Shown here in pieces: positions 29,583 through 46,534 of a stretch of DNA of 64,000 nucleotides (positions are counted from its first letter, which is position 1; each line of letters begins with the position of its first letter). Source of the stretch: Escherichia coli. GTDB taxonomy: Bacteria; Pseudomonadota; Gammaproteobacteria; Enterobacterales; Enterobacteriaceae. The notes beneath the pieces are model-generated. The model did no database searches. It saw nothing but the letters and a program-made list of their open reading frames with translations, and was not told the DNA's origin. The DNA is taken from the NCBI RefSeq assembly GCF_003790525.1, contig NZ_CP033633.1; one strand, given 5' to 3'. The position numbers were made by a program, and so were the translations under genes.

Positions 29583-30404
29583 TTACCAGGGGGATAACGG
29601 AACCCTGAATAACGCAGTGGGTAATATTTTTCCTGTTATCAGATATTCTGCCTGTGCCGGAGTGAGTGTTACGGCGCGAACAGGGATATCCGGAGATATT
29701 TTTCGGGCCATCTGAAACCAGCCTTCTTTTTCTATATCCATTCTGACCGGATATAACGAAAGTACCGGATAAATAATGGTGTTATTAATTTCTTTTTTCT
29801 GCCTGAGCAGAACGCCGCAATATTCTCCGGAATGCGTTCCGGCAAACGGAAAACCATGCCAGAGAATAATGTCCATATTCTCGCGGGCTGAAATAATCCT
29901 GCAGAATATCTCCTGTGTGGCTGGCCAGTCTCCCGGACGATACAGTGGATAATGCACCCTGCCGTTCAGCCATTCCGGACTGAGATAAAACCAGTCAGCC
30001 AGTGCTGCAAGAATCTCCCCGGTCAGATAGTCAGTGAGTCTGTCCGGCTCCCGGAAGACGGCAGGGCGGATATTCCAGGGGGCCAGTAATGCAGCCATCG
30101 TTGTTGCGCTGATATCATGTGCCTGCATGATGTGCTCCATCCTGCTGAGAAGACGGCGGACGATGTTATCTGCAGGAAGAAACATTTCACTTAACGCGTC
30201 TTCGACCAGGATACGCGTCAGGTCAGAGACGGAAAGAGAAAGCTGTTCGCTCATGATACCAAGGGCATCCCTGACTCCCTGCGGATAACGAACCTGCAGG
30301 GGTGTGGACTGCAGCTGGCGATGACTGAGCAGGCATTCGCAAATTCGCTCCCTGTCCAGGGAGAGCATCATACGGGCGGCAATACCTGTGCTGTCAGTTT
30401 TCAT
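29583..30404 (-). CDS. conjugal transfer protein (TraE by position)
   Basis: 273 aa ORF, first gene after rci in the array. Confidence 0.4.
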   Translation of the reverse strand: MKTDSTGIAARMMLSLDRERICECLLSHRQLQSTPLQVRYPQGVRDALGIMSEQLSLSVSDLTRILVEDALSEMFLPADNIVRRLLSRMEHIMQAHDISATTMAALLAPWNIRPAVFREPDRLTDYLTGEILAALADWFYLSPEWLNGRVHYPLYRPGDWPATQEIFCRIISARENMDIILWHGFPFAGTHSGEYCGVLLRQKKEINNTIIYPVLSLYPVRMDIEKEGWFQMARKISPDIPVRAVTLTPAQAEYLITGKILPTALFRVPLSPW

Positions 30405-30677
30405 TTCACCTCCATGCGGGTCAGCGTGTTTTGTTCATAAATTGAGTCTAAAGAGAGTGTTTTTTAAACGGAAGCGAGTTATTTCGATCGTTATGATCGA
30501 GTGTGTTTCAAGAGTGCTTTTAACTCTGTTTTAAGCGTGAATGAAAAGGATTCGGACAGGACGTGATTTAGTATGCCGCTGGTCTGGCATTATGCTGCAG
30601 AGCAGACGGAGTCAGGAGATTGAAAGTATTTCGTTATATAATCTTTTCCTTTTCGGGATGAAATCAACGAGGTTCGT

Positions 30678-30998
30678 ATGAAAATTAAACAGCATAAAGA
30701 AAAACTGGAGATTATAAGGGATATTATTCGAGAGACGCTGTTGGGTAATGCTGCTCTTATTGTTCTGGCAGCCATGGTTCCGGTTGTACTGGTGAAACCA
30801 TGGGATTCGATGACATTTATTTTTATGGGGGCCGTGTGTGTTTCTTTTGCAGTCATTCTGTTTTGGCTGGTTTATATAGTTTGTTTGTATATAGGAACGC
30901 TTGTAAAGAATATTTTTATAAGGATTTTTGCTTTTTCTATTTGGGCCCTTTCTGCTGAGGGGGCAATTATTTATAACATGATAAAGATATTATCATAG
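30678..30998 (+). CDS. small hypothetical membrane protein, 106 aa, AT-rich
   Basis: ATG with GAGGT 4 nt upstream; three predicted TM segments; on the strand opposite to the tra/pil array. Confidence 0.35.
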   Translation: MKIKQHKEKLEIIRDIIRETLLGNAALIVLAAMVPVVLVKPWDSMTFIFMGAVCVSFAVILFWLVYIVCLYIGTLVKNIFIRIFAFSIWALSAEGAIIYNMIKILS

Positions 30999-31089
30999 AA
31001 AAGCTGTTTATATATTGGCTCTATGTAAAAAGAATGGTACCACTGCCAGAGTCCCCGTCGTTATTTTTATGCGTTGGGGCCATGAATGT

Positions 31090-31410
31090 TTATTTGGCAT
31101 CCCTTATCTCGCCCATCAGCAGGCGGATATGCAGCCAGGTGTCATGATCCAGAACAGGTGATGGTGTTACCATGCAAGCACAGTGCCCGATGGCGAGCGT
31201 ATCAAGGAAGCGTTTTGCATCGTTGGCACTTTCATATTCACCAGTATGGATCAACATCCACCTTTGCCCCAACGCTGATTCGGTGTGAATTGGTTGCGAG
31301 AATGCGATTGTGTAAACGTCTTCAATTGTAACGATACGATTATTATCCGCAGTGGCTGCATGGGAGGATAAGTGTTTCATAAAGGGTCTCATAGCGTTAA
31401 TTTTGATCAA
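31090..31410 (-). CDS. hypothetical protein, about 100 aa
   Basis: ORF between traE and rci; track start is TTG, internal ATG starts possible at 31392 or 31380. Confidence 0.3.
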   Translation of the reverse strand: MIKINAMRPFMKHLSSHAATADNNRIVTIEDVYTIAFSQPIHTESALGQRWMLIHTGEYESANDAKRFLDTLAIGHCACMVTPSPVLDHDTWLHIRLLMGEIRDAK

Positions 31411-31421
31411 AAATTATTTGT

Positions 31422-32591
31422 TCAGGAGGAGGATATGAAAATACTGTTCGCTTTTGTCATGAACTGGCTGTTTGTTAACGGACAAATCATGACCCGTTCA
31501 TCAATGTTTGCGGGTAGCTCGCCTGGTGTGGGGACGCGTTCACCCCGCTGAGCAGCCTGGGCCAGTGCGCGCAGCAACAATACGCTGGCGTGAGATATTG
31601 CCAGTTCCCGGGTTTCAGCACGGCTTTCAAGGTCGAAATCGTGCAGTGTCACAATGAACACTCCGTTTCTGTTTCTGACAGTTGCAGGGTAGGGAACAAA
31701 ATAAGGGGAAATTTTGCTGGTCTGTTTACGCCTTGCATCGAGTTTACTGACCAGGTGATATGCCCGGAGGTGTGTGTACCGTTTCAACATGTTCAGTGAG
31801 CGGTGACCGGAAATGGCTGCAATCTCCATAACGTTCAGTGTGCCGAGCTCGAACAGACGGCTGATGGCCTCATGGCGTAGATCGTGAAAATGCAGATTTT
31901 CTATTTTCAGATCCAGAAGAGCGGTACGCCAGGCGCTTTTGAAACCGGACGAGGTGTAATTGAACACATTGCCGTTTATCTGTTGTGGCAGAATTTGCAG
32001 GTAGTTACGTGCTTTCCGGGAGAGTGGTACGTCGCGTGGTGAGCCATTTTTCGTTTCAGGAAGATGCGCCACGCCGTGCTGCAAATCGATGTGTTCCCAG
32101 CGTAATGAGAGAATTTCTCCCTGGCGCATTGCTGTTTCCAGAGCCAGATGGAAGATAACGTAGAGCTGCGGATTTTTGTCCCTGAAATAGCGGGAAAGGC
32201 GGCGTTCTTCACCAGAAGTCAGTCGGCGGTCGCGGCCATTACTGATTTTCGGTTTTCGGACCAGTTCAACAGGATTCATACGGCATGTTCCCCATTCCAC
32301 ACGGGCGATATTGAATAATGATGATAAAAGGGCAAGTTCAAGACGGACGGTATTTCCGGTGATTTGACGCCCTGTTCGTGGGTTAATTTGAGCTAAACGC
32401 TGATCCCGGTAACCGGCGATATCAATGGTAGTGATTTCATCCATATAGCGCTCGGCCATAGGGTGACGTTTAATCACATTGACGCGATAAAACTCCTGCA
32501 GATGACCTTTTTTATGGACGGAAACGGTTTTCAAGTATTTGTCCAGCGCCCGGTTGAGAGTCATTTTGCGAATTTTGATTTTTCGAAACAT
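31422..32591 (-). CDS. rci: shufflon-specific tyrosine recombinase Rci
   Basis: Track ORF 31422..32906; real start at ATG 32591 ([20 protein letters not shown]), about 389 aa; integrase motifs ([25 protein letters not shown]); immediately adjacent to the sfx repeats. Confidence 0.85.
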
Positions 32592-32653
32592 ATCTGCCTT
32601 CCACGATAAAAACAGGGAAGGTAGGAATAGTGAAACGGAAATGCAATATCGCC

Positions 32654-32672
32654 GTGCCAATCCGGTGTGTGG
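32654..32672 (+). repeat. shufflon sfx repeat GTGCCAATCCGGTGTGTGG
   Basis: Exact 19-mer, also at 33148 and inverted at 33877; encodes CQSGVW in the PilV frame. Confidence 0.85.
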
Positions 32673-32879
32673 GTTGGAGGCAATAAAGTGAACTATTCTG
32701 CCTGTAAATGGTATGAAGCGACCTCCGCACATTTTATCGGTGGCAGAAGTGGAGGTTCTATTTATTACAAGCCGATTCAGTGCCCTGCCGGGTACGTCAT
32801 GACAGGTACAAGAATGTACGGCATCGGAGATGGTGTTGATGAAGAGCACGTCGATGCTTACTGTTGCCCTTTTGGTTAG
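32654..32879 (+). other. alternative PilV C-terminal exon (silent in this orientation)
   Basis: Frame continuing from the sfx repeat: [27 protein letters not shown]...CCPFG. Confidence 0.6.
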
Positions 32880-33139
32880 ATTCCGGCACCAGGAAGGTTG
32901 AGGCATGTCACTGTAATTGTGCCACCGGACTCATAATTTCCCCACGCATAATTATTCACATACCAAACCTTGTTTTGGTCGGCGTATATCTGCTGAAAAC
33001 CACCAAAAGGCGAGCCATTAAGGTATGTCCACGAGCAGTACGCATGTACGCCAATGCTCAGATTACGAGTATTTTTCCCGATATTGTATGTACTGGTAGT
33101 GAAGTTCATTTTTGTCGTTGTCCAGATACCGGATTGGCA
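32876..33139 (-). other. alternative PilV C-terminal exon (silent; not joined to the pilV constant region)
   Basis: Frame from inverted sfx at 33121-33139: [21 protein letters not shown]...NLPGAGI. Confidence 0.6.
33121..33139 (-). repeat. shufflon sfx repeat, inverted, variant spacer (GTGCCAATCCGGTATCTGG)
   Basis: Reverse complement shares the 12-bp arm GTGCCAATCCGG. Confidence 0.75.
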
Positions 33140-33147
33140 CGGAGGCC

Positions 33148-33166
33148 AGTGCCAATCCGGTGTGTG
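33148..33166 (+). repeat. shufflon sfx repeat GTGCCAATCCGGTGTGTGG
   Basis: Exact copy of the 32654 repeat. Confidence 0.85.
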
Positions 33167-33539
33167 GGTTGGCTTTGAATCCTACCCTGTGGGAAGCCCT
33201 ATCCCGTGGCCATCTGCCACTCCTCCACAAGGCTATCTGTTGATGAACGGCCAGTCGTTTTCCTGTTCCCGGTATCCTCAGCTTGCCCGTGCTTATCCTG
33301 GCTGTAAATTGCCCGATCTGCGCGGTGTTTTTATCCGTGGCTGGGATAACGGGAAGGGACTTGATGGTGATCGGAACAGACAACTCCTGAGTTATCAGGC
33401 CGATCAATCAGGCGTCTATCACGAACGTGGCGGATGGCTGAAAGGGCATCATAGTGGTATGCCATACTGGGCACAGGGGAGTACCACAGAAATGCGTCCC
33501 AAAAATATTGCATTCAACTACATTGTTAAAGCCAGCTAG
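33148..33539 (+). other. alternative PilV C-terminal exon (silent in this orientation)
   Basis: Frame from sfx: [20 protein letters not shown]...NYIVKAS; tail-fibre-like C-terminus. Confidence 0.6.
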
Positions 33540-33543
33540 GGAC

Positions 33544-34878
33544 TCACATCTGATAGGCATACACAGAGAAAACACCGTTACCACAGGCGTAATTTTGTGT
33601 TGGTCTGGAGATGATTTGATATGACGCTCCCACTGGCACGGCAAATGAAATAAATGCTGTCTTTCCGTAGGAGGGGTTATTGCTGGCATTCATACCAATG
33701 AAAGCGCCGTTCACATAGCCCTGAAGATTTGATGTGTTGGCGCAATCACCGCCACCGGCACCATTTCCACCGGAAGCGTACACAAACAAAGTTCCTCTGC
33801 CGTTATTTCTCCCGTTAAATGTTCCCCGGTGAGAACCCAGATTGCTGTAACTTCCGTCAGGTGCACCAATCGTTCGCCACACACCGGATTGGCACGAAAG
33901 TATTGCCCCTTTACTGTCGCGGCCTACAAGTCCGTCCGGTGAGCAGGAAGTACCTGCGGTGGCTGTTTTATCCAGCTGTAAATACTCACCCGTGGAAAGA
34001 CGCCCCTCAGACCGGACAGTTCCACCACTGACTTTTCCTCCTTTGAGCTCTCCTTCGGTTGTGATCCCTTTGTTGTTAACAGCACGTATCCATTGGCTGT
34101 CCGTCATGGTGAAACCGCCTCCGTGCGTCGTGTTCATCCACCCCTTGTTGTTTCTGGTGATAAGCCAGCCGTCTTCGCTGGTTATATCGCCTTTCACCGT
34201 GGCTTTCTGACCATTGAGGTTACCGGCGTTATTGATGTCATTTCCGCTCATGTTGATAGCTGTGTGCATCTGGTTCAGCTCTGGTCTCCCCGGGACCTGG
34301 AAACGATACAACCTGTCGCTTTCCTGCAGATCATCACCCGTCATGACGACGGCAATGTGACCTGCCGAACAGGTGAGTCCGTAATCCCCCGGTTTGTCTG
34401 TCCAGGCGCCGAATGCGCCGGTTGCTGTTCCGTTTTTACCAATATAACCACCCAGCCCGGGAAGCTGTCCTGCCACACTGCGCAGACCATCTTCTTTGAT
34501 ATTCTGCCCCCCTGTTGAGCAGGTCAGGGCTTCAAGACGTCCTGTAGTCTGGTTACGGCGGATACCCGTGATATAACTCTGCCCAAACGGAGAATGATTA
34601 AATCCCTGTTTCAGGTATCCCTTGCGAATCAAATCATCGGCTGTAAAGTTTGCCGGAAGGCTGCCGTTGTGCAGAGTGGCATTGTTATCGGCAATGTAAT
34701 TTCTGGCTGCGGTATTGTAGGCATCTGCATGAGAAGCAGCACTCTGGTAAAGCTGTTCATTCAGCCAGTTTTCTATTTCGGAATAAATCAGCGGCGTGGC
34801 GATACCAATCACTATCAGTCCCGCCAGTATTTCAAGCAGAATAAAACCTTTGTCGTCATCGTGTCTGAACTTTTTCAC
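33544..34878 (-). CDS. pilV: type IV prepilin-like adhesin PilV (constant region 33896..34878 plus active C-terminal segment 33544..33876)
   Basis: N-terminus KGFILLEILAGLIVIGIA (class III leader and hydrophobic helix); 444 aa; C-terminal region switchable by the shufflon. Confidence 0.85.
   Translation of the reverse strand: MKKFRHDDDKGFILLEILAGLIVIGIATPLIYSEIENWLNEQLYQSAASHADAYNTAARNYIADNNATLHNGSLPANFTADDLIRKGYLKQGFNHSPFGQSYITGIRRNQTTGRLEALTCSTGGQNIKEDGLRSVAGQLPGLGGYIGKNGTATGAFGAWTDKPGDYGLTCSAGHIAVVMTGDDLQESDRLYRFQVPGRPELNQMHTAINMSGNDINNAGNLNGQKATVKGDITSEDGWLITRNNKGWMNTTHGGGFTMTDSQWIRAVNNKGITTEGELKGGKVSGGTVRSEGRLSTGEYLQLDKTATAGTSCSPDGLVGRDSKGAILSCQSGVWRTIGAPDGSYSNLGSHRGTFNGRNNGRGTLFVYASGGNGAGGGDCANTSNLQGYVNGAFIGMNASNNPSYGKTAFISFAVPVGASYQIISRPTQNYACGNGVFSVYAYQM
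33877..33895 (-). repeat. shufflon sfx repeat at the junction of the pilV constant region and the currently expressed C-terminal segment
   Basis: Plus strand CCACACACCGGATTGGCAC is the reverse complement of the sfx 19-mer; encodes SCQSGVW in PilV. Confidence 0.85.
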
Positions 34879-35582
34879 GTGAATATCTCCGAAGTGCGGA
34901 AAACGGAATCAGGGAGGAGGGTTAGTGCATACAGTGATGCGCAGAGAAACGGGGCGAACGGCAGTGCCTGCTGATGTCTGTGACGGCAGAAGAGGAGGAT
35001 AAACAGAAATGCCCCGGAAGCTGCGGCGGTGATTAGCAGCGGCGTGTGTTGTGGCTGTGTCCACATTGCAATTCCTGCTATCAGGAATACATCACCAAGG
35101 CCGAGTGCTTCTGTTCCTTTTGCCGTTATGAAAAACTGCCGTAGCAGGTATGTCATGCCGAACCAGAGTGATGCGTTGAGGAGGCTGTATGTGAGCTCCT
35201 CCAGGCTGTACCTGAACGCTGCCCCCAGAACAATCAGTGAAAGCGTGAATATCCGGGGAAGCCGACAGACGGCGATGTCCGTCAGCGTCATTACAGTTAA
35301 TAATCCCGTCAGAATGGAAAGGAATAACAGCCCCGTGGCTTCAACACCATATGCGCCGTTGAGGCTGACACTCACTATGGCCAGAAGGCAACACACGTAC
35401 ACCACCGGCCTGGGCGGCCGGGTGTCGTGTACTGCTGACAGGTAGAGAGCGGCGGTGATGTATGCAAGATAAAGAATAACCGCCAGGATGATGATTATTA
35501 TTGTCATGCTCAGTAATGCGCTCACCGTCACCTCGTATTTATTAATATTGTCTGAAATACCGGTTGTGGATTTTTCGGGCAT
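34875..35582 (-). CDS. pilU: prepilin peptidase PilU
   Basis: Polytopic membrane protein, 4-bp overlap with pilV; start may be the internal Met (about 210 aa). Confidence 0.7.
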   Translation of the reverse strand: MPEKSTTGISDNINKYEVTVSALLSMTIIIIILAVILYLAYITAALYLSAVHDTRPPRPVVYVCCLLAIVSVSLNGAYGVEATGLLFLSILTGLLTVMTLTDIAVCRLPRIFTLSLIVLGAAFRYSLEELTYSLLNASLWFGMTYLLRQFFITAKGTEALGLGDVFLIAGIAMWTQPQHTPLLITAAASGAFLFILLFCRHRHQQALPFAPFLCASLYALTLLPDSVFRTSEIFT

Positions 35583-36018
35583 ATATCATGCGCCGGGCTG
35601 TGTTATTTTTGCTGAAACCGGCGTTATAGCTGCCCAGGCATTCCCAGTTAACGCCGCAGCGTTGAAAATGGCGGGCCAGTATCCAGGCACCGGTATGAAT
35701 ATTCAGGCAGGGCTTTTTAAGCAGTTCATCCTTGTTTTTAATGACGCCCAGTTTTTTCAGTTCAGGAATATGCACTGAATTAATCTGCATTATTCCGTAA
35801 TCCGTACTGATGATTTTTCCGGATTTGTTTTTATTGTGATTTATCGCAGTGGCGACCAGGCCGCTTTCCTGCTGTGCAATGGTTTTCAGAAGCTCAGGGG
35901 CAATCAGGTAACGTTTTCCGGCCTGAATAAAACAGGAATCGAGATGATTATTATTCATCACAGATGCGATTGATGTGTTACTGAATAAAAGCAGGACAGA
36001 GAGATATAACCATTTCAT
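35542..36018 (-). CDS. pilT: lytic transglycosylase PilT
   Basis: Signal peptide plus ESGL...DYGIMQINS motif typical of soluble lytic transglycosylases. Confidence 0.7.
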   Translation of the reverse strand: MKWLYLSVLLLFSNTSIASVMNNNHLDSCFIQAGKRYLIAPELLKTIAQQESGLVATAINHNKNKSGKIISTDYGIMQINSVHIPELKKLGVIKNKDELLKKPCLNIHTGAWILARHFQRCGVNWECLGSYNAGFSKNNTARRMIYARKIHNRYFRQY

Positions 36019-36076
36019 TATGATAATCCCGGCAGTGACAGCATCCTCTGGTATTTAAGGATGCTGTCCGGAAACA

Positions 36077-36613
36077 TTAGCTGTTTGTTTCAAGGGTGAT
36101 GTTATTTTTGTCGTTACTACATACTGTTACGGGATCCACAGTAGCCGGGGCGGTATTCATGATTTTGGTAAACATGGATGAACTGCGCAGGCTGTTAATG
36201 AGTTCCACGCAATTTTCTTTCGGTACATTATTGCTGGTAATCGTATAACCATACTTATCTGCCGTTGCCTTAATGGTGACATCACCGCCCCAGGCATTTT
36301 TGGCCTTGTTACCACCGGCGATCATATCGGCCGGCAGGGAACCACTCTGCGTCAGCGTTTTGATATAATCACTGCTGGTATATTGTCCCTGGAACTTGTA
36401 CTGCTTCATTTTGGTTGCAATGGTCTGCAGGTTTTTCAGTTCGCGCTGGTTATCACTGGATGACATGGTACTGGACATCTGACTTATTGCGAGAGCAACC
36501 ACAATACCGATAATAATCAGTGCGCTGGCAATTTCCAGTAAGGTTAAACCTTTATCCTCCTCTTTCTCTTTTTTTAAAGCAAAATAAGAATAAAGACATG
36601 ATCTGAAGTTCAT
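36077..36613 (-). CDS. pilS: type IV major prepilin PilS
   Basis: Prepilin N-terminus GLTLLEIASALIIIGIVVALAISQ preceded by a basic leader; 178 aa. Confidence 0.8.
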   Translation of the reverse strand: MNFRSCLYSYFALKKEKEEDKGLTLLEIASALIIIGIVVALAISQMSSTMSSSDNQRELKNLQTIATKMKQYKFQGQYTSSDYIKTLTQSGSLPADMIAGGNKAKNAWGGDVTIKATADKYGYTITSNNVPKENCVELINSLRSSSMFTKIMNTAPATVDPVTVCSNDKNNITLETNS

Positions 36614-36662
36614 ATATCACTCCTGGTTTATGGGATGTTTCAGAAATATTCTGTATGCGGGA

Positions 36663-37829
36663 TTATTGTTTCAGCATGTCGCTGATACTGTAGATGGCAG
36701 ATATCATGTTAAGAATAAAAAAGAAGACAAAACCTCCTGATATACCGGTAATAATTAATCCAATTCGTTTTACCCGTTTTTTTGCTTCCTCCAGCCACTG
36801 ATCGGCATAGAGTGCCATGGTTGCCACTCTGTCCTCCCTTTCGGAGTTCAGGAGCAGTTTATTGATGCATATTCTGGACGGAAAATCGTAACCGGAATTT
36901 CGCATTGCTGTGGCCAGATTCTGACCGGATAATACATGTTTTCGTATTGCCTGAATTCTCTCCTTTAACCATTTATTCTTTTCTGCACCTTTTTCCATTC
37001 GGAGCAGCGCCTGCGAAAGAGGAATATTAATCTGCAGCATGGATGAAATACTGAACAGATAATTCACCCCGTGTAAGGTCTGATACAGTGACCAGGGGGG
37101 AGCCTTGTCCAGCATCCTCCGGCCGGGGCCGGTATACCGGCTGAATGAAAAACGGATCAGAAGCGTCAGGGCGAAAATGGTCCCACAGAGCCAGAATCCG
37201 TACCCGATGAAAAATTCCGACATACCGGCAAGCAATTTCATCTGGAATGACCATTTATCTTCTGAAGCAAACGCACTGACGATGGGGATGATACGGGTAT
37301 GGGCGTTGTACATATTCACCACACAGAGCGAAAGCAGCAGAAGGGGGTAGAGGCAGACGGCAATGAGGCTGGATGTCATTTCCCGCCGGGCTTTAACGGT
37401 TCTGGCCACCTGGAAAAGGGCGTCGGCAATATTTCCGCGCTCTTCCCCGTTTCTGATTAACGTGGCTTCCTCCGGTGGCACCCAGGTTAACAGGGCACCG
37501 GATAACATGCCGCTGGCTTTGATGGAATCGATGCATTCTTTTGCCAGAAAATACATGCCGGATGTGCCTTTCTTTTCACCAAAATCGGTTTCGATCTCGC
37601 AGAGAAATTCGAGTGCACGCAGGGACGGCGTTCCGTCACGTATCATGCCGCCCAGGGCTTCGTAGAACTCCACCCGGTTCAGGGCAAAGGTTTTTCTGGC
37701 CATCCAGATGGTCAGCGCTGTCAGCTCAATGTCGGTGCTGTTGAGTTTTTCCAGAAATTTCATATCAGTGCAGCAGCGTATAGCTGTCCTCATCGACGGG
37801 AGATATATAATGGGCCGCCAGCGGATCAA
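36663..37829 (-). CDS. pilR: type IV pilus inner-membrane platform protein PilR (GspF/PilC family)
   Basis: 388 aa polytopic protein with duplicated GspF-like architecture; overlaps pilQ 3' end so true start is probably internal. Confidence 0.75.
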   Translation of the reverse strand: MIRWRPIIYLPSMRTAIRCCTDMKFLEKLNSTDIELTALTIWMARKTFALNRVEFYEALGGMIRDGTPSLRALEFLCEIETDFGEKKGTSGMYFLAKECIDSIKASGMLSGALLTWVPPEEATLIRNGEERGNIADALFQVARTVKARREMTSSLIAVCLYPLLLLSLCVVNMYNAHTRIIPIVSAFASEDKWSFQMKLLAGMSEFFIGYGFWLCGTIFALTLLIRFSFSRYTGPGRRMLDKAPPWSLYQTLHGVNYLFSISSMLQINIPLSQALLRMEKGAEKNKWLKERIQAIRKHVLSGQNLATAMRNSGYDFPSRICINKLLLNSEREDRVATMALYADQWLEEAKKRVKRIGLIITGISGGFVFFFILNMISAIYSISDMLKQ

Positions 37830-39273
37830 CCTGTCCGCTGTTGATTTTTCCCAGCAGATGCTGATTACGGGTCATTCCGCCCAGTTCCCGGTGCCAGTAT
37901 GTTCTGGCCTCAATACGCCCCTTTTCCCGGTACAACTGGAAAAAACGGGCATCCGGGGAGATGACTTCTGCGATCACTGTTCGTCCTGTCACGCCACGCC
38001 AGCAGTGCGGGCAGCCTTCATGATTTCGCAGATATACCTGGTCCGGGTTGCAGACGCTTTCCACCAGGCGCCGTTCATTATCCGTGCGCTCGGTAGCCAC
38101 CTCATGCCAGGGGCGACGGCAGTGCGGACATATCAGCTGAACCAGACGCTGGCTCAGCAGGCCAATGAACAGTTGCGGGTCGGCAATCATCCTGGCCTGT
38201 ACCCCCTCCATCTCAAGACGTTCGAGGATGTTAATCGGGTCGTTCGCATGGATGGTGGTCAGCATCAGATGCCCGGTCATGGCGGCTTTTATTGCCGTAA
38301 TGGCGGAATCGTGGTCACGGATTTCGCCGTTCAGGATCCCGTCAGGGTCAAGACGTAGTGCTGATTTAATGGAGTCCACCCAGCCCTGTGCGGAATCCAT
38401 GACGGCAGTCTGAATGGCACCGGGTATACGGCCCTCTGGCGGGGATTCAATGGTGAACAGCCTGCGACGGGGCAGAAGAATACCGCCGGTATTGTTGAAG
38501 CCGTACTGTTCAAGGTACGCCGCAGAGGCGGTTCTCAGCGTGGTGGATTTTCCTGAACCTGTTGGTCCTGAGAGCGTGATAATACCTTCAGGGCGCTGCA
38601 GAATACGGCGCAGGGTGCGCTCCTGCTCAGGGTGGTAGCCCAGCATGCTGAAGGTCGGGATTTGCAGACTGTCATCCTTGATCAGACGGAGCACAGCATA
38701 GAGGCCGCCCACGCAGGGATAGTGGGAGTAGCGTGCACCAAACAGACCGGCCAGTTTCAGGTACTGCTCTGAAAGACGCGCATCCTGAGGCACCCCGGGA
38801 TCAAACTGTGTGCCCTTGATGACGTCGGTCATGCCGGAATAGGTGGCCCCCAGTAATTCGAGGCCTTCTTCTTTCCGGAGGATATCGAGCACTTCCAGTT
38901 CGCCGTGAACCCGGGCTTCCACATAGGTGAAGTCCGTGTTGTCTCGTCCCGGGGTCATATGAAGGTCTGAGGCACCAAGAGAGGCAGAATGGCGGATATA
39001 GCCGAGCATTTTCTGCTGTACCGGGTTAATGACGCTTTCATCACCGGCGGTTGTGGTGTCCTGTCTGAGGCGGGCTATCACATCCAGGGTGGTGAATTCA
39101 AAGTCTCCCACACGCCCCTGATGACGTGCGCGCAGGCGGGTCAGATATTCCTGGACGGCACGCAGATGTTTTTTTCCCTCCACGACCCTGACCCGCAGAT
39201 GACCGGTTTTATCTGTGTCGATAGCCACATAATCCAGAATGTCATCCGGTGGCAGGTCTGCAGGATCCAACAT
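37765..39273 (-). CDS. pilQ: type IV pilus assembly ATPase PilQ (GspE family)
   Basis: 502 aa; Walker A GPTGSGKSTT; Cys-x2-Cys pairs typical of GspE-family ATPases. Confidence 0.85.
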   Translation of the reverse strand: MLDPADLPPDDILDYVAIDTDKTGHLRVRVVEGKKHLRAVQEYLTRLRARHQGRVGDFEFTTLDVIARLRQDTTTAGDESVINPVQQKMLGYIRHSASLGASDLHMTPGRDNTDFTYVEARVHGELEVLDILRKEEGLELLGATYSGMTDVIKGTQFDPGVPQDARLSEQYLKLAGLFGARYSHYPCVGGLYAVLRLIKDDSLQIPTFSMLGYHPEQERTLRRILQRPEGIITLSGPTGSGKSTTLRTASAAYLEQYGFNNTGGILLPRRRLFTIESPPEGRIPGAIQTAVMDSAQGWVDSIKSALRLDPDGILNGEIRDHDSAITAIKAAMTGHLMLTTIHANDPINILERLEMEGVQARMIADPQLFIGLLSQRLVQLICPHCRRPWHEVATERTDNERRLVESVCNPDQVYLRNHEGCPHCWRGVTGRTVIAEVISPDARFFQLYREKGRIEARTYWHRELGGMTRNQHLLGKINSGQVDPLAAHYISPVDEDSYTLLH

Positions 39274-39369
39274 AAGGCCTCCTTACGGGCAGCGGCGCCC
39301 GGAAAATATGTTTTCTGTTATTAAGCGAGGGAAATAATCAGTTCTTCTGCGGAGAGAATCTGGACATTT

Positions 39370-40044
39370 TCAGCACAGGCTTAACAGTGTAAAAATGATT
39401 ACGCCTCCAAAAGCGAATAACAGGGGAATGTTTTTCTCCGGCTGTGTTGATCTCAGCGTTAATACCGGTGTGGCGAGAGCGTAAAAAATAATACCTGCGG
39501 TATAAATAAAATAAGGTGTGATGCCGGACAGATTACATACACTGGCGAATATCATAAGCATGACGGCAACTACCGATAAAATAATGGAAGTATTCTTCCA
39601 TTCACCAGATGGTGTAAGTGAAATGATATCGCCATCCTGTTTATAGTTCGTGTTCAGCTTCAGGAAATGACGGATATCTTTCAGCGTGTTCAGTTTCTGC
39701 TGGATCTCTTCCACAAGTTCCTGTCTGTCGGTTTTTTCACGGAGCAGCTGGAATTTTGTCTCCCTCAGTACAGATATAATACGGTCCACCTGGCCGGGGG
39801 AGGGATAGTAATGATGTTCGAGCATCCACCGGATATCGGCGATTAACCGGTCAGTTACCGGTGTATTACCGTTGTTAATGAGAGGTGTTTCGTGCATCCA
39901 CTGAAATATGCGGTAGATATGTCGCTTAACAAAAATAAAATCATCGGTGGTTTTATTCTCCAGCATGAGATATATCCCGTCGAGTGTTAATAATAAAACG
40001 TCCCGGGTGTGAGGTGATTTGTGATGTATTGTACGGAATATCAT
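39370..40044 (-). CDS. hypothetical protein with C-terminal TM segments, 224 aa, extra gene inside pil operon
   Basis: AT-richer than flanking pil genes; larger intergenic gaps (96 and 131 bp) than the tightly coupled pil genes. Confidence 0.4.
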   Translation of the reverse strand: MIFRTIHHKSPHTRDVLLLTLDGIYLMLENKTTDDFIFVKRHIYRIFQWMHETPLINNGNTPVTDRLIADIRWMLEHHYYPSPGQVDRIISVLRETKFQLLREKTDRQELVEEIQQKLNTLKDIRHFLKLNTNYKQDGDIISLTPSGEWKNTSIILSVVAVMLMIFASVCNLSGITPYFIYTAGIIFYALATPVLTLRSTQPEKNIPLLFAFGGVIIFTLLSLC

Positions 40045-40175
40045 TTCTGCACTGTAATCGTTTACGCAGGTGATATATCACACCAGAGTAAATACAGCGG
40101 AATGAAGCTGTAGAGTGACCAGAAAAGCCCGACGGGATCTTTTGCCCACAGGCATAAGAATGTCAGTCCGGTGCA

Positions 40176-40616
40176 TCATGCGCCGGCAAGTGCCGCGCAT
40201 AATTCAGCGCCTCCGGAATTGCCGCTCTTCATCATATAACAGAGCGCGATCAGCAGTGGGATAATGAAGACGAGCGGCAGGACAAAGGATTCGGCTGCGG
40301 ATATCCATTCCCGGTAACGCCAGCGGTCGTTTAATCTGTCGGCATCATATTTCAGACAGTTGCTCAGGAACGCCAGATCGTTCATGAGGGGGGCGTCCTG
40401 GCCATACTGCGCCGCGAGGCGCATTCTGGCACCCCACAACCGGGCACTCAGGGCACGGAGTTGTGCCGGGGTGACCTGTTTTCCCCGACAAAGTTGTACC
40501 TGTAATTGTGTTGCCTCGTGGACAATATCTGTGTGGTTCACCCCATATTCTGCAGCGGCTGTTTCCAGGTCACGGATGATCAGGCTGAGCCAGGATATCA
40601 GTTCACTGATGTTCAT
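40176..40616 (-). CDS. hypothetical protein with C-terminal TM anchor, 146 aa, extra gene inside pil operon
   Basis: ORF between pilP and pilQ; soluble N-terminal domain then hydrophobic helix. Confidence 0.4.
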   Translation of the reverse strand: MNISELISWLSLIIRDLETAAAEYGVNHTDIVHEATQLQVQLCRGKQVTPAQLRALSARLWGARMRLAAQYGQDAPLMNDLAFLSNCLKYDADRLNDRWRYREWISAAESFVLPLVFIIPLLIALCYMMKSGNSGGAELCAALAGA

Positions 40617-40664
40617 TGTCGTTCATCCTTTTGTACGGACAGCCGCCTGTACTGGCGGCCGGTT

Positions 40665-41117
40665 TCATGGTCGCAGGGTTTTTCTGATGCCGGACTGCTC
40701 CAGTACCACACTGTCCGGTGTGATTTTCTCCACGAGATAAGGGGTTCCGGGGATGTTCTGGCCCGTCTTCACATCGGTGATGTGTCCACCCGAAAGTTCT
40801 ATCCGGGCTCTCAGCTGAGGCTGTACACCAAATATTTCTGTCAGACGGGGGGATGTCGCCGTCGACGGGGCAGTCGGGATGGCGGACGTGCTTTCCTGCG
40901 GACGACCGGGCTCTGCGGGAATACCCTGCTCCAGCATGCGCAGTTCATGACGGATTTTCTCTCTCGCCAGCATGGCTTCATACAGGGCTGTTTCGTCCTG
41001 TATCCGCTCAATCTGCAGTTGCCGGGGACTCTGTTCCTCTGCGTTTCCGGTTGTGGCCATTGCCGTTGCCGGTAACAGCAGCGCTGAAACCAGAAGGGCT
41101 TTTGTTTTAGCGTGCAT
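40665..41117 (-). CDS. pilP: periplasmic pilus assembly protein PilP
   Basis: 150 aa with signal peptide MHAKTKALLVSALLLPATAMA; size matches R64 PilP as recalled. Confidence 0.5.
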   Translation of the reverse strand: MHAKTKALLVSALLLPATAMATTGNAEEQSPRQLQIERIQDETALYEAMLAREKIRHELRMLEQGIPAEPGRPQESTSAIPTAPSTATSPRLTEIFGVQPQLRARIELSGGHITDVKTGQNIPGTPYLVEKITPDSVVLEQSGIRKTLRP

Positions 41118-42402
41118 AATATTTACCTGTAAATTGATAGTGGAAACGACCGTTCTCCAGTTGTCGTGTGACAGAGATAAAACGGACAGAAGGCGCCTTC
41201 AGACGTTCAACCAGCTGGTATGCCGGGAGTAGCGTCTGTATCTGAAGGTCATACTCTTTCCACGGAGGCTGGATAATATTTCCGTTTTCATCGGTGACGC
41301 TGTTACTGACCTCCTGCCAGTCCAGCGTCAGTGGCATTGACTGAGCAAGCGTGGTCAGTTGTTCTTGCAGGACAGAGCTTTCCGGCAGAGCATCAACGTC
41401 GACGGGATGTTCAGGCAGGCGGAAGCTGACTGGCAGGCCAATGCCGCCGGTCTTTCCTTCCGGCATCACAATAAAGGGGCGGGTACCCGTCATATCACTG
41501 ATGCGCCGGATGAAGTCAGTCACTGTCGCGCCAGCTGTATTAGTGTACGAGGCGCGAAGATTGCCGCTGCCGCCGTCAGTTGAACATTCAGCCAGCGAAT
41601 AACGCCATCCGGAGGCAGACAGTGGCAGTGACGTCCATATGTCAGCACATCCCTGGATAAAGGCGTCGGTTTCGGGGAGTCCGGGCCAGGGGGGACTGAT
41701 TTGTTCCTCTGTGACCTGTCGGGCAGCTGCTGCCTGCGCGGCTTGTTCAGTCTTCCACCGTTCATAATACTGCCAGCCGTACCATGCAGCGCCGAGAAGG
41801 GCGATGATCAGCGAGACAGTGATGAACTGCGCTCCCCGGGATACCGGATTCAGGCGCGCGGCAGCCGGATGTTTACCAGAGCCGGTCAGGGTGGACAGCG
41901 GCAGGGCCTGATTCTGATCGCCTGCTGAAAATGCCACCGGTTCATAGCGTGTCCAGCCCTGCTCCGGTTCGGTGTTGATGGAAAGAAAGGTATCCCGGGC
42001 TTCACGGACCTCTTCTCCGCTTCCCACCAGGTCACTGACGAGAACACCGTCGACAGCGGAAACAAAGCTGTAGCGCGGTGTTTCTCCGGGTAACGTCAGT
42101 TCCGTGATGGCATAGCCGCCATGTTCAAGCAGTGGCAGGATCAGCAGGGCGAGGGAGAAGCACTGACGGGGTTTTCCGGGCAGTATGCGGCGACTGACAG
42201 TGGCTACCATGGTGTGGGTATCGGCATCTTCATTACTGAGATACTGACAGGCCAGGAAAAGGTCGGCTTTCTGTGCCCGGGCAAAGTCGCGGGCATGCCG
42301 GTACTGTGAGGGCAGTGTTTTCCATTCCAGCCCGGCCAGAAACACATTGCGCCCTGCCGGCAGCGGAAACACCTGCCGCTCTGTCGGTGAAATATCCGTC
42401 AC
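41107..42402 (-). CDS. pilO: pilus assembly protein PilO
   Basis: 431 aa, size and position match R64 PilO. Confidence 0.55.
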   Translation of the reverse strand: MTDISPTERQVFPLPAGRNVFLAGLEWKTLPSQYRHARDFARAQKADLFLACQYLSNEDADTHTMVATVSRRILPGKPRQCFSLALLILPLLEHGGYAITELTLPGETPRYSFVSAVDGVLVSDLVGSGEEVREARDTFLSINTEPEQGWTRYEPVAFSAGDQNQALPLSTLTGSGKHPAAARLNPVSRGAQFITVSLIIALLGAAWYGWQYYERWKTEQAAQAAAARQVTEEQISPPWPGLPETDAFIQGCADIWTSLPLSASGWRYSLAECSTDGGSGNLRASYTNTAGATVTDFIRRISDMTGTRPFIVMPEGKTGGIGLPVSFRLPEHPVDVDALPESSVLQEQLTTLAQSMPLTLDWQEVSNSVTDENGNIIQPPWKEYDLQIQTLLPAYQLVERLKAPSVRFISVTRQLENGRFHYQFTGKYYAR

Positions 42403-42422
42403 GATCGTCCTCCTTGTGAAAA

Positions 42423-44042
42423 TCAGATGATATTGGGCGTGATCAGCACCACGAGAATGGTGTCGTCGTTTTCACTGTTGATCCCACCGCCAAGACCGAA
42501 GAATCCCGGCGTGCCTACACCCTGTTTTCCGCTGCGACGTCCTGACTGCTGGAAGCCACTGATAATGACCGTCTGCCCGGATTTCAGATCCACGGTCTGA
42601 TTGATGGTTTTCAGATCCACATTCGGCAGCTGGGCTTTACTTCCACCGCTCTCATAATTCTCAATAACCGGTTTGTCGGAGAGACTCATGGAATAGAGCA
42701 ACTGCAGTGTCTGTGAGTCCGGGAGAATGAACGGCAGAAGGGTCATGTTAAAACCGGTGGTGATGGTGGCCGCATTCAGGGAGGTGGATGAGCCGACATT
42801 GGCAGTGGTATCCGTCGTCACACTCTCGATGTAACTCTGCTGATTGGCGATCTGCATTGGCACCGGCGTCAGGTTTTTGGTGACGGCAGAGTGCTGGGTC
42901 ACCACACTGACAACCCCCTGGGAAGACAATGCTTTCAGGAAGGCTTTTGAACCGGTGAGTTTACCGTCCACAATGGAAACACCACCTGTGATGGCATCAC
43001 TGGCTGCACTGGTGAATGTGCTGCCGAGACTCAGTCCCAGCGTTCTGTCGCTGAAGACTGCGTTCCAGTCGATACCGGCCTGCTCATTGCGGGTTTTCCG
43101 GATACTCAGAATTTCCACATTCAGCACCACCTGACGTTTCATCTCTTCATTGCGTTTTTCAATGAATGCCCGGACCGTTTCCAGAACCTGTGGATTATCT
43201 GTGACGGTTATAAAGCCCGTGGACATGAACATGCGTCCGATACCCGGGGTCAGCATTGATGTGACCGCATTTTTCACATCCTGATACAGCGCAGACTTCA
43301 TATCCACGGTGGTGGTCTGGGTATTGCTGGCATCACCGGAAATGGCATCTGATGCACTGCCTCCTGATGAGCCGTTTGAGGACATGGTGCCGCTGACCAC
43401 AGTGGCGTTATAGGTCACCTGACTGTCCATATAGGTGATGGGGAAGGTCTGTGTCTCGAGATAATAGAAGATGATATGCGAGCCGTCATAGCGCCAGGAT
43501 ATACCGAGACGGGAGGAGACCGCATTCAGCAGGGTCGTCAGGCCGGAGGCATTCAGTTCAGACAGTGCTGCGGTATTTCCCGGCAGACGGGATGATGGCG
43601 TGTCAGATGCGCCAATGGCGGCAAGGGGAACCATGCCGCTTGCATCCGGTGGGGGTAACGCGCCCTGGATTTGTTGTGTGCTGCCGGTTGTGGATGTATT
43701 CAGGTATGTCAGTACATCAGGTGTGATCCGTACAGGAATATGGCAGCTTTCCGTGATCCGCTGAACCACCTGCTGAAGGGTGATGCTCTGACGGGTATGA
43801 ATGACAATGGGACAACCGGGAACGGTTTTGCCGGTGTTTTTATCCATGACCGGACGGGGATTGATCCATTGTCGAGAGGATTCCTTAACAACCGGCGTCC
43901 GGGTTCGCAGATCAGACATCATTTCCCGTGCCCGTTGTTGTTCCGCAACGGCTTCCTTTCTTGTGCTCTCAAGCTGTCTGTAACTGGCACAGCCCTGTAA
44001 CAGAGCGGCGGCAATCATAATGGCAAGAATTTTTTTATTCAT
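42423..44042 (-). CDS. pilN: secretin-family lipoprotein PilN
   Basis: 539 aa; lipobox ALLQGCAS; secretin-like C-terminus ...DDTILVVLITPNII. Confidence 0.8.
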   Translation of the reverse strand: MNKKILAIMIAAALLQGCASYRQLESTRKEAVAEQQRAREMMSDLRTRTPVVKESSRQWINPRPVMDKNTGKTVPGCPIVIHTRQSITLQQVVQRITESCHIPVRITPDVLTYLNTSTTGSTQQIQGALPPPDASGMVPLAAIGASDTPSSRLPGNTAALSELNASGLTTLLNAVSSRLGISWRYDGSHIIFYYLETQTFPITYMDSQVTYNATVVSGTMSSNGSSGGSASDAISGDASNTQTTTVDMKSALYQDVKNAVTSMLTPGIGRMFMSTGFITVTDNPQVLETVRAFIEKRNEEMKRQVVLNVEILSIRKTRNEQAGIDWNAVFSDRTLGLSLGSTFTSAASDAITGGVSIVDGKLTGSKAFLKALSSQGVVSVVTQHSAVTKNLTPVPMQIANQQSYIESVTTDTTANVGSSTSLNAATITTGFNMTLLPFILPDSQTLQLLYSMSLSDKPVIENYESGGSKAQLPNVDLKTINQTVDLKSGQTVIISGFQQSGRRSGKQGVGTPGFFGLGGGINSENDDTILVVLITPNII

Positions 44043-44072
44043 GGGAGATCCGTGAGTTATTCAGATTCGTGA

Positions 44073-44510
44073 CTAATTCATCCAGAGGATGACGTGATCG
44101 GGGATCACCGACGGAAGTGTGACGGAAAGCGCTCTGCCGGCGGTGTCCAGCAGCCGGCCGTTTTCCACCCTGCCGAGGAGGGCAGAGTCATGACTCTGTT
44201 CCCTGAGGGCGGCCATCAGGCCCGGGGTTTCTGTGGCCCAGACAAAAACACGTTGCTGGCTGATGATATGACTGACGGTATCCGTCCCGGGAAGCCCGAG
44301 CTGAGCGGATGTCAGCCGCCCTCCGGCTGTCCGTCGTTCCGGATTCTGATGCAGGTAATCATTGATGGCGTTCATATAACGAATGAACGTTGCTGCCTGT
44401 TGTGTGTTTTCTGCGGCCTGATGACGGTGTTCGCTGCGGGAGAGCTGACTGGTGAACCAGAAATTGCCGGTGGTCGTGATGACCATGATGAACACGATGA
44501 ACCAGCCCAT
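44073..44510 (-). CDS. pilM: pilus assembly protein PilM
   Basis: 145 aa with N-terminal TM; size matches R64 PilM. Confidence 0.5.
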   Translation of the reverse strand: MGWFIVFIMVITTTGNFWFTSQLSRSEHRHQAAENTQQAATFIRYMNAINDYLHQNPERRTAGGRLTSAQLGLPGTDTVSHIISQQRVFVWATETPGLMAALREQSHDSALLGRVENGRLLDTAGRALSVTLPSVIPDHVILWMN

Positions 44511-44514
44511 AAGG

Positions 44515-45585
44515 TTATTCCTGTGGACGATCTGTCACCCGCAGCAGACATTGTGCTGTGCTGGTCCGGGCATACAGCGGTTTTTCCACCGGGGTGTAGA
44601 GTGCAAATAGCTGTTCCAGCGCCTGGCGGAAACTGCCGGTGAAAACCAGAGGAGCATCGATGCTGTAGTTGACAGGTGTTTCCCAGCGCAGTGTCCATGT
44701 GCCGTGCGGGCATTTTTCGGATGATGTCCAGCGGGCCAGTCCGTCTTTCAGGGTGGTCCCCTTTTCCATTTTCCACTGCCGTGGCGGTATGACCTTCTGC
44801 GGTGGTGTCACTACCGGTTTCGTGGCCACCGGGGCTGGCGTGGTTGTTCTGCTCTCTGGTGTTCCGGATGTCCCGGTGGTGGTCTGAGCCCGGGATACGC
44901 TGACGGCAGGTGGTACCTGTGCCTGGTCTGCCGCTGTTCCGGTTGTGCTCCTGAACGGATTACGTGGTGTGTCCGCTGTTTTCTGTGAACCCTGCGGTGT
45001 CGTGACGTCGACCGGCGGTGTTGCAGAGGTCGTGACAGTCAGTATTTTCCTGTTCCAGTCCATATGTCCGTAAAGCTGCTGGCCGGCCAGCAGCGCATTC
45101 AGTGCCCGGTGCCACTGGTCATTAACGGACCAGGAAGGGAGGCGTTTGTTCAGTGCCGGTGTGGCGGCATTCTGCTGGCGGAACTGCCAGCCGGTTGGCA
45201 GCAGCTGGCGTATCCAGTCACTGACGGTGCGCTGACGTGCTTCACGTAAATAAACGACGGATGAGGGACCGGGCTTACCGGTCATAACCAGTGCAGACAG
45301 CGGTGTGGCCTGAAGAAGCGGGCGGGGAGGCAGTGCGGTACTCTGGCTGCTGACAGTGGTTGAGGGTGTCGCCGTTGTTGTCGGACGGGGCGGTGTCACA
45401 GGGCGGGTCACCGGTGGCGGAAGCAGACGTTTTTGCGTATGGGTGATAATGGCAGCACTTTCGCGAATTTGTCCGTCGACGAACACCAGAGCCGGAGGCG
45501 TGGTATCCGGAACAGGCGTGGCATTAAATGCCGTACAGCCGCTGAGTAATGACGGCAGAAGGAGTGTCAGTGATTTCTTTTGCAT
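44515..45585 (-). CDS. pilL: pilus assembly lipoprotein PilL
   Basis: 356 aa; lipobox LLSGCTAF; Pro/Thr-rich linker; size matches R64 PilL. Confidence 0.6.
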   Translation of the reverse strand: MQKKSLTLLLPSLLSGCTAFNATPVPDTTPPALVFVDGQIRESAAIITHTQKRLLPPPVTRPVTPPRPTTTATPSTTVSSQSTALPPRPLLQATPLSALVMTGKPGPSSVVYLREARQRTVSDWIRQLLPTGWQFRQQNAATPALNKRLPSWSVNDQWHRALNALLAGQQLYGHMDWNRKILTVTTSATPPVDVTTPQGSQKTADTPRNPFRSTTGTAADQAQVPPAVSVSRAQTTTGTSGTPESRTTTPAPVATKPVVTPPQKVIPPRQWKMEKGTTLKDGLARWTSSEKCPHGTWTLRWETPVNYSIDAPLVFTGSFRQALEQLFALYTPVEKPLYARTSTAQCLLRVTDRPQE

Positions 45586-45706
45586 AGAATATAATCCGGT
45601 ATATTACGGGTTACGGTATAAGACAGGTGGCGGGTAACTGGCCTTCAGATGAATATCATTTCATCGGGTTATTGATGATGAACCTTAAAAATCACAGAGG
45701 TGATGC

Positions 45707-46102
45707 ATGATAAAGAAGATGTGGCGTTATTTACGGCAAATTGATAAGTATGAATTGCTGCAGCAGGTGATTTCAGTACATGAAGTGGAACTGCTCAGGA
45801 AAATGATGACAGATTCATTATTAGGGTGCTCAGTAGGATATGTGTTTTCGAAAATACTGAAGATATTCTTTCTGCGTTTTATTCAGTCTGAGGGGGGATG
45901 GGATATTATTACTTACTTTTTGTGGATGCTGGGAATACTTATTGTCATGGCCGCGCTGTTTATCTGGATGTGCGCCGCTGTATGCTATGAGCTTCGGATG
46001 TATAAAATAAAAACAGGAAGGGAGAACGATATATTATTCTGGGTGTGGATTCTTCTTTTTGATGTCGCGGTTGTATTTTCGCTGGGTAATGTTATCTGGT
46101 GA
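45707..46102 (+). CDS. hypothetical membrane protein, 131 aa, AT-rich
   Basis: Plus-strand ORF in an AT-rich block upstream of pilL; two or three TM segments. Confidence 0.3.
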   Translation: MIKKMWRYLRQIDKYELLQQVISVHEVELLRKMMTDSLLGCSVGYVFSKILKIFFLRFIQSEGGWDIITYFLWMLGILIVMAALFIWMCAAVCYELRMYKIKTGRENDILFWVWILLFDVAVVFSLGNVIW

Positions 46103-46534
46103 TTATGGGTTCAGTGACATATGGAAAAAGATAAGTGCGAACATTGATACTGAAGAATAATATATCCAGGAATAGAAAAACATGAATTTCGGAGATGGTT
46201 TCTTCTGTCTCCTGTTTTTCAGGGGAGTCTGTGGGTCAAATGTTATCAGCGTCATTAAAGGATACCCTTTCATAAGAATAAAAATATAGACGCATAAATG
46301 AGCGTAAAGAGGTAACCTGTCCTGCCAGAACAGAATCATCATGATGACGGCAAGATGAAATGTCGTTACATTGATATAATAAAACCAGCTGTATTTACGC
46401 AGATACTGTTGGATATTCACGCTGTCAGCATGCGGTTCTGGTGAACAATTTATGCAAAAACAGAAGAAAGAAATGATGATGAACACGGTCAGAGTGACCG
46501 GTAATACAGTCACAAGCAGAAAGAGTATGGACAT
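46103..46534 (-). CDS. hypothetical polytopic membrane protein, 143 aa, AT-rich
   Basis: Converges on the preceding ORF with zero spacing; could alternatively be a divergent PilK-like gene. Confidence 0.3.
   Translation of the reverse strand: MSILFLLVTVLPVTLTVFIIISFFCFCINCSPEPHADSVNIQQYLRKYSWFYYINVTTFHLAVIMMILFWQDRLPLYAHLCVYIFILMKGYPLMTLITFDPQTPLKNRRQKKPSPKFMFFYSWIYYSSVSMFALIFFHMSLNP

Follow-up and report, generated by a model that had tools for sequence, protein, structure and literature searches.

A compact two-segment shufflon, of a form already in public records, in DNA matching an IncK2/Z-type conjugative plasmid

The 64,000-nucleotide stretch of Escherichia coli DNA that we analysed (hereafter, the window) carries an array of sfx sites placed between an intact rci gene and the 3′ end of pilV (Table 1). 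We read positions 31000-35500 of the window and searched the 12-mer GTGCCAATCCGG across the full 64 kb, with shuffled sequences as a control. The 12-mer has 4 matches, compared with 0.54 expected by chance when at most one mismatch is allowed, and this count was reached in 0 of 100 shuffles. All four sfx sites are perfect 19-bp matches to the consensus GTGCCAATCCGGTNNNTGG, and they occur in the order +, -, +, -. A previous reading of the same DNA, made from the sequence only, had proposed four 19-bp sites with two in each orientation, which is what we found. For two of these repeats it gave positions 33121 and 33148; the repeats are real, but the coordinates are one base low, the true starts being 33122 and 33149. 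A search of positions 30000-36000 for degenerate relics of the 12-mer, allowing up to two mismatches, revealed none beyond the four sites.

We name the repeat types (e, f, g, h) after PMC5350095, with GTGCCAATCCGGTTCGTGG as the e-type sequence. By repeat type, the site order in the window is g-f-g-g. The sites bound two units, a left one of 487 bp and a right one of 747 bp, whose names, C and A respectively, follow the database annotations of relatives. The shufflon region was fetched from eight such relatives, namely the chromosome of strain SCU-106 (L001) and the plasmids p4FM-NDM-5 (L003), pEC17CM7_NDM (L004), pPK8275-145kb (L005), pXDL-2 (L006), pEF5-18-41_2 (L007), pMS1718-3 (L008) and p1106 (L009). 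The reference record for plasmid R64 was NC_005014 (L002).

Table 1. Features of the shufflon region and the adjoining pil operon, with positions in the window
Feature	Coordinates	Strand	Details
rci, shufflon-specific tyrosine recombinase, 389 aa	31422..32591	-	Pfam Phage_integrase, E=3e-25
sfx site 1	32654..32672	+	GTGCCAATCCGGTGTGTGG; GTG variable triplet, repeat-g; beside rci
C-type exon, 74 aa, silent here	32654..32879	+	Stop 32877-32879; 83% aa identity to R64 exon L002 33742+
C'-type exon, 87 aa, silent here	32876..33140	-	Stop 32876-32878; 83% aa identity to R64 exon L002 34216-
sfx site 2	33122..33140	-	GTGCCAATCCGGTATCTGG (tail ...GGTATCTGG); ATC variable triplet, repeat-f
Inter-segment gap	33141..33148	.	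8 bp, GGAGGCCA
sfx site 3	33149..33167	+	GTGCCAATCCGGTGTGTGG (tail ...GGTGTGTGG); repeat-g
Tail-collar exon, 129 aa, silent here	33149..33539	+	Stop 33537-33539; Pfam Collar PF07484, E=2.2e-13
A-type exon, 116 aa, pilV-fused now	33544..33895	-	Stop 33544-33546; 67% aa identity to R64 exon L002 35127-
sfx site 4	33877..33895	-	GTGCCAATCCGGTGTGTGG (tail ...GGTGTGTGG); repeat-g; pilV constant-region junction
pilV constant region, N-terminal 328 aa	33896..34878	-	Pfam Shufflon_N, E=2.4e-106
Rest of thin-pilus (type IVb) pil operon	34875..45585	-	ORF size and order match R64 and IncK2/Z relatives

The rci gene begins 62 bp from the first sfx site. Its product is 75% identical to the Rci of R64 over 373 aa, with conserved motifs around the catalytic residues (including GHRS...RYTH). 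It is identical to WP_021532708.1, the protein annotated in p4FM-NDM-5, pEC17CM7_NDM, pXDL-2 and pEF5-18-41_2, while the Rci of pMS1718-3 has one residue that is different. For both Rci and PilV, all NCBIfam hits stayed below threshold, and a scan of positions 31300-35000 for promoters and terminators detected nothing above shuffled expectation. We observed that a larger ORF of 494 aa (31422..32906) is merely an upstream read-through of rci that meets no in-frame stop. A tail-fibre switch driven by a serine invertase (of the Gin, Cin or Hin type) was also considered; a tyrosine-type recombinase acting on sfx sites excludes it. The likeness to tail-fibre ends is confined to one exon, the collar exon discussed below.

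The current pilV ORF extends over 33544..34878 on the minus strand and encodes 444 aa. Because the Shufflon_N domain is present, this protein is, on domain evidence, PilV. Its leader resembles that of a prepilin (MKKFRHDDDKG/FILLE). Overall, the protein shares 48% identity with its R64 counterpart, including a conserved ...GAILSCQSG.W junction. A search of PDB sequences with full-length PilV gave no match. Upstream of the shufflon, open ORFs occur at the positions of pilU, pilT, pilS, pilR, pilQ, pilP, pilO, pilN, pilM and pilL; since all of its ORFs are open, the pil operon is apparently intact. Elsewhere in the window there are insertion sequences, a replication region, and tra and trb genes of the IncI type; such tra and trb genes also flank the shufflon region in annotated relatives. 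The closest plasmids, taken as the best matches, share 96-99% nucleotide identity with positions 1-45000 of the window. The closest relatives that we fetched are classified as IncK2/Z by PLSDB, and the type of the window is read from them. By this comparison, the host element matches a conjugative plasmid of the IncK2/Z type, within the IncI complex.

We translated the exons inward from each sfx site in the frame (G)TGC-CAA-TCC-GGT. The frames entering from all four sites are open, for 74, 87, 129 and 116 aa in the order of the sites, and each of the four exons starts with CQSG(V/I)W. In the left unit, the two exons converge with overlapping stop codons (TTAG, 32876-32879), and in the right unit the stop codons of the convergent exons are 4 bp apart. 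The sequence-only reading had described two segments with two convergent exons each, giving four PilV C-termini that all begin with CQSG(V/I)W, and the four open frames agree with this on every count. It had also given 33544..33876 as the exon currently fused to pilV; indeed, the 116-aa exon continues the 444-aa pilV ORF.

Comparison with known PilV variants, which had been proposed as a check, shows that three of the four exons have R64 homologues with 67-83% amino acid identity. The R64 exon that corresponds to the A-type exon is the one fused to pilV in the R64 record. The collar exon is the exception, with no counterpart in R64. An NCBIfam search with the exons gave no hits. Besides carrying the Pfam Collar domain, the collar exon matches the tip of the long tail fibre of phage T4, gp37 (PDB 2XGF), with E=2.8e-20. 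The presence of this phage tail-fibre collar domain in one of the four exons had been overlooked previously. About 400 PLSDB plasmids carry the collar exon with at least 95% identity, and their annotations often assign it to PilV.

Relative to R64, dN/dS is 0.05 for the C exon and 0.10 for the C' exon. Judged by these ratios, purifying selection has acted on both exons, although they are silent in this isomer. Such maintenance of silent exons makes sense only if they are occasionally expressed. In two relatives, other exons than the A type are in the expressed position: the PilV of pMS1718-3 ends in the C exon, and that of pXDL-2, as annotated, ends in the collar exon.

The relatives differ in their number of segments and in how the segments are arranged. 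In plasmid p1106 the IncK2/Z set is complete, with four segments bounded by eight sites of the types h-f, g-g, e-e and e-e, and its repeat-type orders match those published for IncK2 plasmids (PMC5350095). Three segments occur in each of p4FM-NDM-5 and pEC17CM7_NDM, in differing orders and orientations. By contrast with these, pPK8275-145kb, pXDL-2 and pMS1718-3 contain exactly the two segments of the window, as byte-identical units of 487 bp and 747 bp that are rearranged. Relative to the window, segment C is inverted in pPK8275-145kb, segment A is inverted in pXDL-2, and in pMS1718-3 the whole 1242-bp block is inverted with respect to rci and pilV. The breakpoints of the rearrangements in these three plasmids are sfx sites. 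Further two-segment forms occur in pEF5-18-41_2 and in the chromosomal copy of strain SCU-106.

We explored these arrangements by a breadth-first search over inversions between oppositely oriented sites. Under this inversion-only model, a two-segment shufflon has 8 isomers, and the window, pPK8275-145kb, pXDL-2 and pMS1718-3 represent four of them. When the whole block flips, so does the 8-bp gap, as expected from the model. The three-segment isomers of p4FM-NDM-5 and pEC17CM7_NDM interconvert by allowed inversions alone. We had considered that the 8 bp might also need to invert by themselves, but this is unnecessary, given that the search interconverts the two three-segment plasmids without it. 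The SCU-106 type, in which the gap is reversed and the segment order is the same, is out of reach by allowed inversions. Overall, comparative evidence from the relatives points to Rci-mediated inversion at these sfx sites at the level of the lineage, and we infer that Rci is also active in this particular clone.

A mechanism can be proposed on this basis. Rci would recombine any two sfx sites in opposite orientation, probably crossing over within the invariant GTGCCAA spacer. In R64, according to the summary given in PMC5350095, crossover falls in a core of 7 bp, and each exon carries the conserved arm along with it. In the window, the 12-bp right arm TCCGGTNNNTGG, which encodes S-G-x-W, would likewise always stay with its exon. 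Three kinds of inversion would be available, namely of segment C alone, of segment A alone and of the whole C-gap-A block, and together they would give 8 DNA isomers. Each isomer would put one of the four exons (A, tail-collar, C or C') in frame after the ...SCQ of the pilV constant region. Because crossover would be in the core and the arm would travel with the exon, each cell would have one of four PilV tip adhesins for its thin pilus. The choice of tip would then change which recipients are bound in liquid mating. PilV variants are described in PMC5350095 as setting recipient specificity in liquid mating for R64 and pCT, and by analogy the PilV variants of the window probably also differ in recipient specificity. 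Taken together, the locus is very probably a two-segment Rci/sfx shufflon of the IncK2/Z type that acts as a four-way switch of the PilV tip and that arose by deletion from a larger form.

The deletion origin was studied by simulating recombination in silico. A crossover between direct sfx sites of p4FM-NDM-5 removes its 577-bp e-e segment, and both possible pairs of direct sites lead to the same deletion product. This product has 2 mismatches and 0 gaps relative to positions 32600-33950 of the window (1351 bp). A similar deletion on the four-segment p1106 loses two segments in one step and gives a product with 1 mismatch to the SCU-106 copy. The window type and the SCU-106 type are distinguishable: the former has the gap GGAGGCCA and GTG in the site of the C exon (a g-type C exon), while the latter has the gap TGGCCTCC and TTG in that site (an h-type C exon). 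Given that the state of the SCU-106 type is unreachable by inversion, a deletion of its own, starting from a four-segment form like that of p1106, accounts for it better. The two types look like two independent deletion lineages. Most likely, the two-segment form is a deletion derivative of a three- or four-segment IncK2/Z shufflon, and the loss would have occurred by rare recombination between two direct sfx sites. Rci favors inversion, and an evolved mutant of the R64 Rci showed low-level deletion in yeast (PMC11850598).

The same simulation fits the reverse reaction equally well, in which a circular segment is inserted at an sfx site. Accordingly, the two-segment form could be ancestral, with the larger IncK2/Z shufflons having gained segments from other IncI-complex plasmids, and in IncI2 plasmids Sekizuka et al. 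(PMC5430464) left "insertion or deletion of segment C" undecided. However, R64 and IncK2/Z have the C, C', A, D-like and B-like exons in common as homologues, which makes a multi-segment ancestor more parsimonious. Moreover, there are two distinct two-segment lineages, and for each of them a single deletion from a larger form that is actually observed would suffice. We consider an ancestral two-segment form quite unlikely and, by parsimony, infer that the direction was loss and not gain.

A different concern is that the two-segment arrangement is an artefact of assembly, such that three or four real segments were collapsed across the identical junctions of 19 bp, 8 bp and 19 bp. Shufflons are hard to assemble (Brouwer et al. 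2015, as cited in the literature consulted), and misassembled shufflons may be present in databases (Sekizuka et al., PMC5430464). In addition, the extra 577-bp e-e segment is present in the close relatives p4FM-NDM-5 and pEC17CM7_NDM, and, among the 15 closest backbones, the record spans of roughly 8 suggest three segments, some of these spans having been checked by sequence. Against this, pPK8275-145kb, pXDL-2 and pMS1718-3, complete plasmids of independent origin (Pakistan, China and the USA), make up at least three cases of a two-segment C and A composition with byte-identical units, and two-segment forms were also found in pEF5-18-41_2 and the SCU-106 chromosome. Segment number is, furthermore, documented as variable (PMC5350095, PMC5430464). 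Collapse during assembly is thus very unlikely, in our estimation. Finally, the locus could be a frozen relic whose sites and exons remain but whose inversion is lost (for example, with rci silent) and whose PilV is fixed as the A form, as would agree with the lack of a promoter-like site above chance near rci, but this is highly improbable. The full-length rci retains its conserved motifs and does not differ from the gene in plasmids caught as other isomers, all four sfx sites are perfect to the consensus, and the isomeric relatives have the same four exons, which are all open in the window.

The two-segment shufflon is real but ordinary. Its form is already in public records and falls within published variation. 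The view of this locus as a compact shufflon is well borne out, since Rci, a PilV with Shufflon_N, consensus sfx sites, homologous exons and the pil operon were all found. For annotation, the arrangement in the window should be regarded as one of eight interchangeable isomers, so differences from related plasmids in this region of ~1.2 kb should not be taken for divergence. Which recipients this resistance-associated plasmid family reaches in liquid environments may be limited by how many PilV tips it has and of which type; for shufflons, this view is already accepted. The combination of PilV with a tail-collar domain has also been noted before (PMC9881135) and is common in plasmid records. 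It is conceivable, but unlikely, that the retention of exactly C and A/collar represents, instead of random loss, a selected minimal set of adhesins in poultry-associated E. coli, in which the collar would provide a phage-like receptor specificity. If this were true, the specificity of the collar tip would not be that of the R64 PilV variants, for which recognition of the LPS core has been described.

We now compare the locus with known shufflons. The shufflon of R64 (IncI1) consists of Rci, seven sfx sites and segments A, B, C and D, as reviewed by Komano 1999 (cited through PMC5350095). In the R64 record, we found seven sfx sites, whose consensus is the same as that of the window. The two shufflons share the consensus GTGCCAATCCGGTNNNTGG, the position between rci and the pilV 3′ end and the CQSG.W junction. 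They also share 8-bp gaps at back-to-back sites, an Rci with 75% identity and three homologous exons (67-83% at the amino acid level). The R64 shufflon has seven sites, four segments and seven exons, whereas that of the window has four sites, two segments and four exons and, unlike R64, lacks a D segment bounded by direct repeats. The exon paired with A has a tail-collar domain in the window and is unrelated to the R64 exon at that position, and overall identity across the pilV constant region is low, at about 48%. Therefore, the layout is simpler than that of R64 (two versus four segments), as had been proposed, although it is a known and recurrent variant (PMC5350095, PMC5430464).

The 8-bp gap had been regarded as unusual, which is not the case. 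Two gaps of this length occur in R64, one reading GTAGGCCA and the other its reverse complement. Among the IncK2/Z relatives examined, those with at least two segments have one per junction, with the sequence GGAGGCCA or its complement. The gap GGAGGCCA of the window is itself present in L003-L008. Because of these occurrences, an 8-bp gap between back-to-back sites is a standard feature of such shufflons.

IncI2 plasmids have six, four or two PilV forms and differ by segment gain or loss alone (Sekizuka et al. 2017, PMC5430464). They resemble the situation of the window in that near-identical plasmids differ in the presence of segments, and a form with four variants is documented (PMC5430464). 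However, they belong to another plasmid group, their segments are A, BD and C, and their repeat consensus is slightly different.

A PilV with Shufflon_N and a Collar (PF07484) C-terminus that is switched by inversion was reported in CP084655.1 (Milman et al. 2023, PMC9881135). The same combination of Shufflon_N and Collar is produced in the window type when segment A inverts. The CP084655.1 locus is flanked by pilus operons, whereas the collar exon of the window is one of four options on a plasmid of the IncK2/Z type, and the two are likened by their domains.

The closest correspondence is to the IncK2/Z shufflons. In IncK2 shufflons the sfx sites number 2-8 and belong to the types e, f, g and h, as described by Seiffert et al. 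(2017; PMC5350095), and IncK2 plasmids that are otherwise near-identical vary between two and eight sites (PMC5350095). The order g-f-g-g is absent from the seven orders in PMC5350095, yet it lies within the range of 2-8 sites given there. The IncK2/Z shufflons and that of the window agree in backbone and Rci, both use repeats of types f and g, and their C and A segments are byte-identical. There is no difference of substance between them, and the window corresponds to the [C+, A+] isomer.

One of the four alternative PilV C-termini of the shufflon matches both the Pfam Collar family (E=2.2e-13) and the tip of T4 gp37 (PDB 2XGF; E=2.8e-20). Judged by sequence, this exon is a phage tail-fibre collar domain. 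Tail-fibre regions of Aeromonas, Vibrio and Klebsiella phages and of phage HK106 share 41-47% identity with it, as do those of E. coli phage and plasmid records of roughly 96 kb, each of which matches in several places. Tail-fibre assembly genes are annotated alongside the matching regions in several records. At ≥95% identity, the exon occurs in about 407 PLSDB plasmids.

Features of the window discussed in the text
Feature	Position	Strand	Remarks
193-aa ORF	24652-25233	-	Hydrophobic N-terminus; no Pfam match
rci, mechanical ORF (494 aa)	31422-32906	-	No in-frame stop upstream
Tail-collar exon, one of four PilV C-termini	33149-33539	+	Matches Pfam Collar and PDB 2XGF
224-aa ORF	39370-40044	-	Between pilP and pilQ; no Pfam match
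146-aa ORF	40176-40616	-	Between pilP and pilQ; no Pfam match
Replication and accessory region	45000-64000		Annotation of plasmid pE15-3

The 8-bp gap between the two segments (33141-33148) reads GGAGGCCA, and is the same in the plasmids p4FM-NDM-5, pEC17CM7_NDM, pPK8275-145kb, pXDL-2, pEF5-18-41_2 and pMS1718-3. Its reverse complement, TGGCCTCC, is found at the C|A junction of the chromosomal shufflon of strain SCU-106 (locus L001, 6542-6549) and of the plasmid p1106 (locus L009, 4042-4049), even though the segments on either side are ordered and oriented as in the window. Gap orientation is bound to segment order in a two-segment shufflon, and the gap thus marks the ancestral arrangement that preceded the probable deletion. 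The same two loci differ from the window in the variable sfx triplet of the C exon, which is GTG in the window (32667-32669, giving CQSGVW) versus TTG in L001 (6068-6070) and L009 (3568-3570). The latter triplet corresponds to ‘repeat-h’ (CQSGLW), which also occurs on the C exon in published IncK2 repeat orders. Repeat type is thus not a constant property of a given segment.

In E. coli SCU-106, the two-segment shufflon lies in a chromosomal IncI-type pil/rci/traE/traF block (NZ_CP053234.1, 2090120-2103465) that adjoins the sigA autotransporter toxin gene. This block seems to be a plasmid or island that has integrated, and strain N41 has a similar chromosomal match.

The mechanical rci reading frame reaches its full length because no in-frame stop lies upstream, and it thereby crosses sfx site 1 and reaches back into part of the C segment. 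Annotations of relatives choose the ATG at 32591, giving 389 aa.

Gene contents of the replication and accessory region were taken from the annotation of pE15-3, whose match is ~5.6 kb longer than the window, with a TnAs1-type transposon annotated there. According to this annotation, the region carries an IncFII-family-type RepA and a Phd/RelE toxin-antitoxin pair, together with flotillin and OB-fold genes, copies of IS91 and IS1414, and a PerC-family regulator.

The 193-aa ORF, flanked by an LPD7-domain gene on one side and the next tra genes on the other, lies within ~1 kb that is missing from the close relative pPK8275-145kb. The two ORFs between pilP and pilQ are “hypothetical proteins” in the annotation of relatives. 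The IncI1 plasmid R64 has no genes between pilP and pilQ, and its shufflon has no counterpart of the window's collar exon.
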